Source: Acinetobacter phage vB_AbaA_LLY. Taken from it: DNA of 42,869 nucleotides. Shown here in pieces: positions 7,286-16,575 of the stretch (position 1 is the first letter of the stretch; every line of letters begins with the position of its first letter). The notes under the pieces are model-generated. The model had not been told where the DNA came from. It was given only the letters and a program-made list of their open reading frames with translations, and did not search any database. Location of the stretch: the sequence record OQ503491.1; one strand, 5' to 3'. Made by a program: the position numbers and the translations under genes.

Positions 7286-7588
7286 ATGGCAGGGGCAGCT
7301 AAACGTAGTCGCCTCTCGGAGCTGCACCACATGTTCACCGAGGCCTTGATTGAAGAAATCAAGCAGTCCAAGGAAGATGAGGTGCCGCTCCCCGCCGCAG
7401 ATAAATCAGTTATCGCCAAGTTCTTGAAGGACAATGACATCACCGCGGACGCAGATTCCGAGGAGATGCAGGACCTTCGTGATGAATTCGATGACGAACT
7501 AGCGGCGCGCAGAGAGGCGCGTAAGCAAGAGATTCTAAATAAAGTTGGTGGTTCAGACTCTGAGGACTTACTAGAAGGAATTGTCTAA
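7286..7588 (+). CDS. Terminase small subunit (DNA maturase A) candidate, 100 aa, acidic
   Basis: Small acidic ORF immediately upstream of, and translationally coupled (ATGA overlap) to, the large terminase. Position equivalent to T7 gene 18. Confidence 0.5.
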   Translation: MAGAAKRSRLSELHHMFTEALIEEIKQSKEDEVPLPAADKSVIAKFLKDNDITADADSEEMQDLRDEFDDELAARREARKQEILNKVGGSDSEDLLEGIV

Positions 7589-8157
7589 TGATATCGGCGA
7601 AGACTGCGCGAAGACTGCGCATGCTCAACCAGAAACTTACTGGTTATAGTGTGAATCCGCGCAGTATCCCCAAAGAGGAGCGCGAGGATATCGCGATGAT
7701 GATGGCCGCCGCTCTAAGCGACTTCCGGGAATTTGCGTACATCGGTATGCGGTTCCTGGGCTTTACGCTCACGGACATGCAGGCCGACATTGCAGAGTAC
7801 ATGCAGAAGGGCCCTAGGAAGCGCATGGTGGCTGCGCAGCGTGGTGAGGCTAAGTCTACACTAGCTGCACTGTACGCCGTCTGGAGGCTCATACAGGACC
7901 AATCCTGTCGTATCCTGATTGTGTCCGGCGCGGAGAAGCAGGCGTCAGACGTAGCTAACTTAATCATTCGTATGCTGGAAACCTGGCCGCTGCTGTGCTA
8001 CTTGAAGGCCGACCCTACTCGTGGGGACCGTACTTCATTCGAAGGCTATGATGTCAACTGCGATCTGAAACCGCTGGACAAGTCCGCCAGCGTAGCCTGT
8101 GTAGGTATCACTGCATCCCTGCAGGGGAAGCGCGCGGACCTGCTGATTCCTGACGAT
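7588..8157 (+). CDS. Terminase large subunit, exon 1 (ends ...GKRADLLIPDD)
   Basis: Aligns with T7 gp19 ...TDMQADIAE(Y/F)M... through GKRADIIIADD. The ORF then hits TAA, the first nucleotides of the intron. Confidence 0.85.
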
Positions 8158-8501
8158 TAACATCATAGTCGTCATTAAACCCCTTGAATTCGGTGGAAAC
8201 CCAGACCGGGCAATACCGAGCGAAGCCTCAACTGAGGAACGTGTAACGACTATTCCGTAAGGAAGTACCAGCAAGTGCTGGGAAGCGGGGGGCCTTGACT
8301 TACTGGTCAAGTGAAGATATAGTCTACTCTGCATGGGAACATGCAGTATCTACTACAAGATTTGAGCGGTAGCCGTACTTACTCCAAGAGTACGTGCCGA
8401 TTTATCCCAGCCTCTGAGAACTTATCAGACGCAGGCAACCGTCGCTGGGGTAACAAGTAGTAGGTAGGGGGAGAGGTAGCGTCCTCCCTTTAATATACAG
8501 G
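8158..8501 (+). mobile_element. Group I self-splicing intron (ORF-less, 344 nt) in the terminase large subunit gene
   Basis: Joining 8157|8502 restores the T7 gp19-like sequence PDD|IETTKNGLTQTQREQLL (T7: ADD|[17 protein letters not shown]). Exon ends in U. P1: exon 5'-UGACGAU / intron IGS 5'-GUCGUCA with U·G at the splice site. Intron ends in G. Conserved R element GUAACGACUAUUCC and S element GAAGAUAUAGUCU are present, with a P8-like hairpin CTTGAC-ttactg-GTCAAG. Confidence 0.8.
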
Positions 8502-9788
8502 ATTGAGACCACCAAGAACGGTTTAACGCAAACCCAGCGTGAGCAGCTGCTGATGATTTCGAAAGACTTCGCAGCTATCTGTACGCACGGGGATACGCTG
8601 TACCTGGGTACACCACAGACCAAGGACAGTATCTATAAAACCCTGCCGGGACGTGGCTTCGAGGTCCGCGTGTGGCCGGGGCGCATTCCGTCTGTTGAAA
8701 TGGAAGAGCGATATGGAAGTACACTTGCTCCTTATATACTGGAGCTCATTGGGCGCGGCTATAAACGCACCGGCTTCGGCGTCGACGGGACGCTAGGCGA
8801 GAGCACGGACACCGGGCGCTACGACGAGGATGCACTGATTGAGAAGGAGCTGGACTTCGGTCCGGAAGGCTTCCAGCTGCAGTACATGCTCGACACCACC
8901 CTGTCAGACCAAATGCGTACGCGCATCAAGCTCTCGGATATGCTAGTTTACTCCGGTAGTCAGGATTCCTCCCCTGAGACGTTCTCCTACATTGCGGACC
9001 GCAGGTACCTGTACCAGCACGAGCATGAGGGGATTATGGGTCAGCAGATGTACTTCCCGGCATTCTACGGGGATATGCACCTGCCGTATCAGCATAAGGT
9101 GCTGGTGGTAGATCCGGCCGGCTGTCGCGGCGATGAAGTTTCATACGCTGCTGGTGGTGCTGCGAACTCGTACATTCACCTATTCTCAGTAGGTGGCTTC
9201 CAAGGAGGTATCAGCGAAGAGAACATTGATAAACTGATTGATCTGTGCGTAGAGTTAGACATCCCGGACATGGTGGTGGAGAGCAACATGGGGCACGGCA
9301 CCGTGTCTATGCTTATTCTGAACCGGTTACGGGAGCGGCGTCTCGTCGGTATTGGTGTACGGGACCTGAACAACTCCACGCAGAAAGAGCGTCGTATCAT
9401 CGACACAATCAGCCCAGTTACTCGTCGTCACCGCCTGGTGGTGCATGAGCGTGCTATTCACGACGATATCAGCACCTGTATGGCGTACTCACGCGATAGG
9501 CGTTGGCTGTACTCTGCGTTCGCGCAGTTGTCCGGTATCACGTACGACCGCGGTAGCCTGGCGAAGGATGACCGAGCAGATGCAATCGCCATGATGGTGG
9601 CTACGCTGAACGGGCATCTGGTGGAAGATGAGAAAGTAGTAGCTGAGCGTGAGTCTGAGAAGATGGCTCGGGCCTTCATTGAGAATCCCCTGGATTGGGC
9701 ACAGAATAAAGTGTCTAAGGGGCTCCGGGGTGTAGCTGCACGGTTACAGAACCGGGGCAGAGGTAAACAACATAGAGGAAGAAGATAA
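8502..9788 (+). CDS. Terminase large subunit, exon 2
   Basis: ...REQLLMISKDFAAICTHGDTLYLGTPQT aligns with T7 gp19 [17 protein letters not shown]...VIYLGTPQT. The C-terminal nuclease region is conserved. Confidence 0.85.
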   Translation: METTKNGLTQTQREQLLMISKDFAAICTHGDTLYLGTPQTKDSIYKTLPGRGFEVRVWPGRIPSVEMEERYGSTLAPYILELIGRGYKRTGFGVDGTLGESTDTGRYDEDALIEKELDFGPEGFQLQYMLDTTLSDQMRTRIKLSDMLVYSGSQDSSPETFSYIADRRYLYQHEHEGIMGQQMYFPAFYGDMHLPYQHKVLVVDPAGCRGDEVSYAAGGAANSYIHLFSVGGFQGGISEENIDKLIDLCVELDIPDMVVESNMGHGTVSMLILNRLRERRLVGIGVRDLNNSTQKERRIIDTISPVTRRHRLVVHERAIHDDISTCMAYSRDRRWLYSAFAQLSGITYDRGSLAKDDRADAIAMMVATLNGHLVEDEKVVAERESEKMARAFIENPLDWAQNKVSKGLRGVAARLQNRGRGKQHRGRR

Positions 9789-16243: not shown

Positions 16244-16575
16244 ACGAAACAGCTGTTTTCATGTGGAGGCTGCTGGAAACGCAGGGCAAGTGCGGTTGCA
16301 CTTGGGAAACATTCAAAGAGGTCCCTAATGAGCTCAAGCAAATCGTGCCAGTTGAGCGTCGATTACTCCGAGTTAGAAAAGCGGGTATTGGCACTGTTCT
16401 CACAACCTATCGAGAGTACACTGAATCTGCCGCGCGCGGATTGCAAGAGCGCATTGCGTTCGATGTGGTTGCAGCACTACGGCGGAATGGATACCGCGGA
16501 GCTTTTAAGCAATTTAGAGCCGCGATCCGTGCCTACTACAAGCAGCGACAACTCGCCGCGTGGTACGCACGCTGA
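16230..16575 (+). CDS. Early hypothetical protein (~115 aa, basic; frame of ORF 16141..16575)
   Basis: Internal ATG at 16230 gives a non-extended product. Overlaps the alternative long start (16328) of the next ORF, so only one arrangement can be correct. Confidence 0.3.

Follow-up and report, generated by a model that had tools for sequence, protein, structure and literature searches.

The large terminase gene (terL) of the phage analysed here is interrupted by a group I intron of 344 nt (8158..8501, + strand), whose first three bases form an in-frame UAA (8158-8160) and whose last base is the terminal G8501. We hold with high confidence that ordinary group I splicing restores the terL mRNA and that the intron no longer homes by itself; we infer both the catalysis and its occurrence in vivo. 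The window, i.e. the complete stretch of 42,869 nucleotides that was analysed, probably contains a descendant of a larger mobile intron, as only the last 33 codons of an HNH endonuclease gene are left in it. For this reason, the window copy is regarded as an intron but not as an autonomous mobile element. Selfish elements of this kind are well known, and this Drulisvirus terL copy is a new member without a new mechanism.

Judged by its sequence, the window phage is a KP34-like member of the genus Drulisvirus (Autographiviridae, Slopekvirinae) and thus of a Klebsiella podophage type. Its closest deposited relative across 24 kb is RCIP0099 (95.8% identity, 89% query cover), and megablast shows 94-96% identity between its packaging region and over 200 records of Klebsiella phages. 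The genes are arranged locally in the order internal virion protein, tail fibre, small terminase, and large terminase, with the small terminase gene (7286-7588) located directly before terL. The G+C content of the intron (8158-8501) amounts to 49.7%, compared with 55.3% for the terL exons (7588-9788), which is consistent with a foreign origin of the insert.

The exons are delimited by several lines of evidence. Exon 1 (7588..8157, + strand) comprises 190 codons ending with ...LLIPDD, as indicated by the list of open reading frames, the KpV475 junction, and the alignment with T7 gp19. The respective reading frame (7588-8160) ends with ...GKRADLLIPDD, as originally proposed, and is then closed by TAA at 8158-8160. 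The T7 gp19 counterpart, which had been quoted as GKRADIIIADD, has to be corrected to GSRADIIIADD (PDB 4BIJ alignment). Exon 2 (8502..9788, + strand) consists of 428 codons plus stop and starts with IETTKNG...; its frame from 8502 reads IETTKNGLTQTQREQLLMISKDF and continues without interruption into the ORF 8553-9788, so that the downstream frame had been recognized correctly as well. A megablast search with 7588-9788 revealed approximately 240 Klebsiella phage records that align over exactly 1857 bp, corresponding to 2201 minus 344, and the intron-less terL of KpV475 is contiguous exactly at 8157|8502. The uninterrupted terminase that had been sought at this codon in related phages is therefore present in approximately 240 records, and the boundaries 8158-8501 are correct to the base.

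Joining 8157 to 8502 generates a TerL protein of 618 aa that is identical to the uninterrupted KpV475 TerL at 610/619 positions (98.5%) and equal to it in length. At the predicted spliced junction, GAU is joined to AUU (...CCUGACGAU|AUUGAGACC...), with ...ADLLIPDDIETTK... as the encoded protein sequence. The spliced product can be aligned over its whole length with the structures 8DGC (E 2.6e-81) and 4BIJ (E 4e-67) of T7-type large terminases, and the T7 terminase RNaseH-like nuclease domain (Pfam PF22530) covers residues 393-502. The host gene had accordingly been named rightly as the large terminase, since excision yields a full-length homolog of T7 gp19. In the 4BIJ alignment, the insertion point lies between the codons for D190 and I191 (...RADLLIPDD|IETT..., the counterpart of ...RADIIIADD|VEIP... 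in T7 gp19). The insertion would sit inside a Walker-B-like ATPase segment, LLIPDD|IE (IIIADD|VE in T7 gp19), a reading that is based on a hydrophobic run followed by two acidic residues (hhhhDD), a Glu two residues further on, and the 4BIJ alignment; a search of the literature for a published Walker B residue assignment for T7 gp19 did not retrieve one. Strongly conserved catalytic segments are the usual targets of homing endonucleases.

The ribozyme was recognized by the Rfam model RF00028 at 8097-8346 (+ strand) with a score of 68.2 bits (gathering score 50, E 2.4e-15) over the full model (1-253). This is the sole Rfam match within the 42.9-kb window, and the homologous introns of four relatives score 65-68 bits with the same model. 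The Rfam alignment puts its first hairpin on exon sequence; the true P1 is formed by 8151-8157 (UGACGAU, the last 7 nt of exon 1) and 8168-8174 (GUCGUCA). In this helix of 7 bp, the internal guide sequence GUCGUCA (8168..8174, + strand) represents the 3' strand, and its G8168 is placed opposite U8157 at the 5' splice site. P1 with its U·G pair and the terminal G (G8501) had both been predicted and were found at these positions.

The remaining helices, all on the + strand, follow the canonical order of a group I core. P3 (8180-8186/8286-8292) is followed by P4 (8190-8195/8214-8219), a P5 of only 3 bp (8200-8202/8208-8210), P6 (8220-8221/8241-8242), and P6a (8226-8229/8234-8237). P7 (8248-8252/8320-8324, UAGUC) is pseudoknotted with P3. 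Two hairpins, P7.1 (8253-8256/8261-8264, with a GUAA loop) and P7.2 (8268-8272/8277-8281), precede P8 (8294-8300, CUUGACU/8305-8311, GGUCAAG), which leads into J8/7. P9 (8329-8335/8340-8346) carries a GGAA loop; P9.1 (8347-8356/8457-8466) encloses the loop in which the endonuclease gene is located in the full-length form, and P9.2 (8469-8473/8484-8488) is followed by the 3' tail UUUAAUAUACAGG up to G8501. The conserved R (GUAACGACUAUUCC, 8243-8256, + strand) and S (GAAGAUAUAGUCU, 8313-8325, + strand) elements, which make up the guanosine-binding helix P7, as well as P8 were thus located as foreseen. An explicit check of all pairs showed that every helix is fully canonical, and a minimum-free-energy fold calculated without constraints recovers most of them. 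Hence, the ribozyme fold on which the original prediction hinged was obtained together with a complete core. A P2 is absent from the structure of the window intron. We infer a placement in subgroup IA, IA2-like, from P7.1 and P7.2, the additional hairpins that lie between P7 and P3'.

Two details concern the splice sites. Intron position 10 (8167) is occupied by A in the window and in one IMG/VR contig (L016) and by G in all other variants, which show GG here; with the A, the window copy has a single G to form the U·G wobble. No convincing P10, the pairing of the guide region with the 3' exon, emerged when 8158-8167 was compared by eye with 8502-8507; the best candidate comprises 4 bp and is interrupted by one bulge. 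Many group I introns have a weak P10 or can do without it.

The reaction is envisaged as follows. The late terS-terL transcript would carry the intron, and ribosomes translating exon 1 would stop at the UAA formed by the first three intron bases. The RNA would adopt the P1-P9.2 architecture, and free guanosine would attack the bond after U8157, which would be held in P1 by its U·G wobble with G8168. Subsequently, the freed 3' OH of U8157 would attack the bond after the terminal G8501, and ligation of GAU to AUU would produce the mRNA for the intact TerL of 618 aa. TerL is essential, and the unspliced message would end at residue 190.

It is conceivable, and in our estimation unlikely, that splicing takes place in vivo but not autonomously, a host or phage factor or translation-coupled folding being needed. 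Several Bastillevirinae introns are spliced in vivo and not in vitro (PMC11878797), and the intrinsic activity of the window intron could be lowered by its short P5, its weak P10, and the 100 nt of non-native sequence inserted in P9.1. On the other hand, its core elements are all canonical, and related IA2 introns of T7-like phages (Bonocora & Shub 2004; Pf-WMP3) reportedly self-splice under mild conditions. Cofactor-free self-splicing is therefore considered less certain than splicing in vivo, since some phage group I introns with a good core require cellular conditions (PMC11878797).

That the ribozyme is maintained by selection is suggested by a comparison of introns from the same site. These were collected from the GenBank records of ZH4, ZX22, Henu2_3, and ECO104 4-5-2 and from IMG/VR contigs, the latter gathered by three scans, two using exact patterns and one guided by TerL, and they comprise 13 unique sequences. 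Helices were scored in each sequence by anchored regular expressions instead of alignment columns; column-based pair counts were left aside because the gaps introduced by MAFFT in P7.1 and P8 are not structural. Across the 13 unique variants, no non-canonical stem pair was detected. In P1 of ZH4, exon position -7 and its partner in the guide sequence show a compensatory change from U-A to A-U. P7.2 shows two compensatory pairs (C-G to U-A and A-U to G-C), P9 of the ECO104-type variant one change from U-A to G-C, and P8 of the ZX22-type variants is a wholly different helix that is still fully paired. Single changes compatible with wobble pairing occur in P4, P7.2, P8, P9, and P9.1. Pairing is retained in P7.1 and P7.2 in spite of covariation or length variation, the loops L7.1 and L9 vary solely within GNRA (GUAA/GAAA and GGAA/GGGA, respectively), and all 13 variants end with GG|AUU. 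Owing to the close relationship of the variants (mean column identity 95%), the covariation counts represent few independent events; within this limit, the stem changes indicate selection for ribozyme folding, the ORF-less forms included. The identification as a group I intron is therefore upheld by the covariance-model score, the complete core, and the helices kept in 13 variants.

Synonymous exon sites near the junction are also tied to the presence of the intron. Among the near-junction sites of the coding sequence (1857 nt), only those at -7 (T), -4 (C), and +3 (T) show a strong association (frequency differences of 0.90, 0.64, and 0.94, respectively), and those at -7 and -4 pair with the guide sequence. 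This pattern fits short co-conversion and/or selection on P1.

These data also bear on the notion that the insertion is what remains of a dead intron and is no longer spliced, with TerL being made as an N-terminal fragment of 190 aa and a C-terminal fragment of 411 aa starting at ATG 8553. We consider this highly improbable, even if it agrees with the GenBank entries of relatives, where two or three separate coding sequences are given as 'terminase large subunit / DNA maturase B', and even if split yet functional phage genes are known, e.g. the ribonucleotide reductase of Aeh1, as cited in PMC8351571. A relic would hardly be expected to possess a complete ribozyme core scoring far over the Rfam cut-off, or compensatory and wobble changes that maintain every helix in 13 variants. 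In addition, no Shine-Dalgarno ribosome-binding site was found before ATG 8553, and for this reason a separate translation start for exon 2 was rejected. A start at this position would omit 17 conserved codons (8502-8552), and the ATPase would be cut between the Walker-B-like DD and the next Glu.

Splicing of a single terL gene, which we prefer, has consequences for the annotation. In GenBank, the relatives (L001, L002, L003, and L080) carry split terL coding sequences plus a 'hypothetical protein' or a nuclease and no intron feature, and the terL of ZH4 is annotated as three maturase B fragments. In the window phage and at least nine GenBank relatives, terL should instead be described as one gene with one or two ribozymes. 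Such a correction bears on the genomes of therapeutic Klebsiella phages, on terL-based phylogenies, and on pangenome counts.

The history of the insert is apparent from longer forms at the same site. A length of 776 nt was found for ZX22 and for five IMG/VR contigs, six variants out of 13, all of which harbor an intact ORF of 172 aa in the P9.1 loop (intron nt 217-735). The encoded protein belongs to PHROG 2081, 'HNH endonuclease' (E 2.7e-39); a Pfam search gave no match for it, and a PDB sequence search gave chance matches only (E >0.2). The window intron equals the 776-nt form minus nt 196-631 (436 nt): its nt 1-199 correspond to nt 1-195 of the longer form in the pairwise alignment, and its nt 200-344 to nt 632-776 of ZX22, with 139/145 positions identical. 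Downstream of the deletion junction (8356|8357), a relic of the HNH gene is retained (8357..8460, + strand), comprising the last 33 codons (DLSGSRTYSKSTCRFIPASENLSDAGNRRWGNK) and the UAG stop. When translated, 8347-8457 is 89% identical to residues 136-172 of the HNH protein (tblastn, E 1.4e-17), and an ORF of 39 aa at 8341-8460 matches phrog_2081 (HNH, E 2.6e-4). The relic is devoid of the native start codon, a ribosome-binding site, and the YHLDKD segment bearing the HNH histidine, and a tblastn search of the window did not detect a second HNH copy that could act in trans. The loss of the endonuclease, part of the original prediction, is hence confirmed by deletion mapping and by both relic matches. 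The accompanying statement that there is no internal ORF is valid in functional terms, though not literally, as the 39-aa ORF, an HNH relic, exists.

The deletion map was deduced from pairwise global alignments with cheap gap extension; a MAFFT alignment of five size variants was dropped, as it misplaced 8357-8460 onto the 5' part of the ZX22 insert. Three further deletions were mapped on the 776-nt form, namely nt 212-665, leaving an intron of 322 nt, nt 237-717, leaving 295/297 nt, and nt 197-725, leaving 251 nt (ECO104-type). Each of them is located within the P9.1 loop, between short direct repeats, and the P9.1 stem is common to the 776-nt form and all four deletion derivatives. The different end-points, each flanked by short repeats (e.g. 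TAACAA or CGCT), point to an independent origin of the four deletion classes (344, 322, 295/297, and 251 nt). In the proposed scenario, the ancestor would have been a mobile 776-nt intron with the gene for the 172-aa HNH homing endonuclease in its P9.1 loop. A deletion of 436 nt between imperfect short repeats would have eliminated the gene's first 138 codons along with its start, leaving a splicing-competent intron no longer able to promote its own homing.

The converse order, in which the window intron would be the ancestral ORF-less form and the 776-nt form would have arisen by later insertion of the HNH gene, appears barely credible, and the ORF fragment refutes it where the window copy is concerned. 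Separate acquisition of introns and endonuclease genes has indeed been proposed in the I-PfoP3I paper (PMC3428280), and virtually no ORF sequence is present in the 251-nt ECO104-type form. The window, however, keeps 100 nt with 89% protein identity to the last 37 residues of the HNH protein, in frame and with the same stop codon, but lacks the start and the segment of the catalytic His; no insertion could account for half a gene in an 'empty' allele, and the four deletion end-points each show short flanking repeats.

Deletion from an armed ancestor, the order adopted here, is accompanied by a patchy distribution. The intron at this site (site 1) was found in 8 of approximately 57 IMG/VR contigs with a Drulisvirus-type terL and in 9 of the 282 INPHARED records with a matching terL. 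It is present or absent among phages whose terL is about 95% identical, and RCIP0099, the most similar phage overall, has an uninterrupted terL. The original prediction placed the loss of the endonuclease after fixation of the intron; this does not hold, as the site is polymorphic and only a minority of the phages carry the intron. The remark on the rarity of terminase introns in podophages is only roughly true for site 1 at these frequencies, with the restriction that relatives have a second terL intron site.

The family extends to a more distant lineage. Phages of the phiKDA1-like lineage (ECO104 4-5-2 and identical 'UNVERIFIED_ORG' records) contain the 251-nt form, the core of which is 97% identical to that of the window. 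Their terL shares approximately 73% nucleotide identity with the window terL, and their own nearest relatives are intron-less. The high identity of the core compared with that of terL, together with the intron-less nearest relatives, is consistent with a lateral movement of the intron family in the past. The presence/absence polymorphism among phages with similar terL and the tight linkage of junction-flanking exon sites to the intron agree with such a history as well. Five 'UNVERIFIED_ORG' records (OR844702.1, OR846963, OR848465, OR850875, and OR844872), with terL regions that are 99.4-100% identical and contain the 251-nt intron, bear the names of Escherichia, Listeria, and Salmonella phages from Turkish wastewater. 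This set probably represents one phage assembled from several enrichments, with unreliable host names.

Introns of this type have been encountered in other phages, which allows a comparison. Bonocora and Shub reportedly found, in 2004, group I introns within T7-like phages' DNA polymerase genes. Pf-WMP3, another T7-like phage, possesses a self-splicing intron of group I in its DNA polymerase gene (PMC3428280). Resemblances to these polymerase introns include Autographiviridae-type podophages as carriers, a ribozyme class with P7.1/P7.2, an endonuclease of the HNH family with a C-terminal HNH motif, and insertion into an essential gene of DNA metabolism at a conserved segment with a catalytic role. 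In contrast to them, the host gene is the large terminase, the phages belong to Slopekvirinae/Drulisvirus, and the endonuclease gene resides in the P9.1 loop, being reduced to a stub of 33 codons in the window copy. For one lysin-gene intron, Foley and colleagues are said to have described, in 2000, a full-length form along with shorter deletion derivatives. The terL introns resemble this lysin intron family in that a single site is occupied in a minority of phages and the derivatives keep the ribozyme. They differ in host gene and in intron sequence, which is unrelated, the lysin introns being those of Gram-positive siphophages; the terL series comprises four deletion classes mapped to the base. 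A terminase intron has reportedly been known since the 1995 work of Mikkonen and Alatossava on the Lactobacillus phage LL-H. In the Bastillevirinae, with group I introns in the terL of SIOphi and phiAGATE, splicing was shown in vitro and in vivo, and PHROG 2081 is among the intron-encoded HNH families of this group, where it occurs in DNA polymerase introns (PMC11878797). These phages and LL-H have in common with the window phage a terL interrupted by group I introns, sometimes two or three and some with HNH genes, and are distinguished from it as large Gram-positive myophages or siphophages. Literature searches did not turn up a description of a terL intron in Drulisvirus or KP34-like phages. 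The life cycle of homing endonucleases encompasses invasion, fixation, degeneration, and loss (Gogarten & Hilario 2006, in the form summarised in PMC5418858); all stages are represented at this site, with no conceptual difference.

One site accordingly offers a natural series of empty alleles, an armed intron, four truncated introns, a probable precise loss, and a putative inter-genus transfer. As the phages are virulent and easily grown, they are convenient for testing homing, trans-homing, and intron-mediated competition in podophages. Interference competition through an intron-encoded endonuclease has been shown for PhiPA3 and PhiKZ (PMC11620839). By analogy, the endonuclease-less intron might serve as an immunity allele in competition between phages, in that it would disrupt the terL target site of the HNH enzyme of co-circulating relatives; we regard this as a speculative proposal that is more doubtful than probable. 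If it applied, the window phage would escape cleavage of terL, an essential late gene, by armed relatives such as ZX22 in co-infections without the cost of an endonuclease gene, and the unarmed intron might spread in trans whenever an armed co-infecting relative cuts intron-less genomes. The four independent ORF deletions, all of which keep the ribozyme, and the GIY-YIG intron at the second site would then reflect a continuing arms race at the terminase ATPase motif.

This second terL insertion of 802 nt occurs at CDS nt 1197/1198 in ZH4, Henu2_3, P284, and six IMG/VR contigs. It contains an ORF for a GIY-YIG nuclease and matches RF00028 with 59.6 bits in ZH4; the intron core is approximately 73% identical to that of the site-1 intron. 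The loci comprise L001 (2013-2231), L003, L080, L066, and L074-L078. The corresponding position in the window (9128|9129) is empty.

Contig L066 (IMGVR_UViG_3300045988_002328) has the site-2 intron and no site-1 intron, and yet its site 1 shows the flanks that were otherwise confined to intron-containing alleles (CCTGACGAT|ATTGAAACA) instead of the usual intron-less site (CCAGATGAT|ATCGAGACC). This points to an intron precisely lost from site 1 or to a recombinant.

A further group I intron was detected in the replication region of RCIP0099 (RF00028, 70.6 bits; L081 1948-2156, record positions 16339-16547), where it is located between two 'hypothetical protein' coding sequences. RCIP0099 has this replication intron and none in terL, whereas the terL intron is the only one that Rfam detects in the window, so that the intron content of the two phages differs at an overall identity of approximately 96%.
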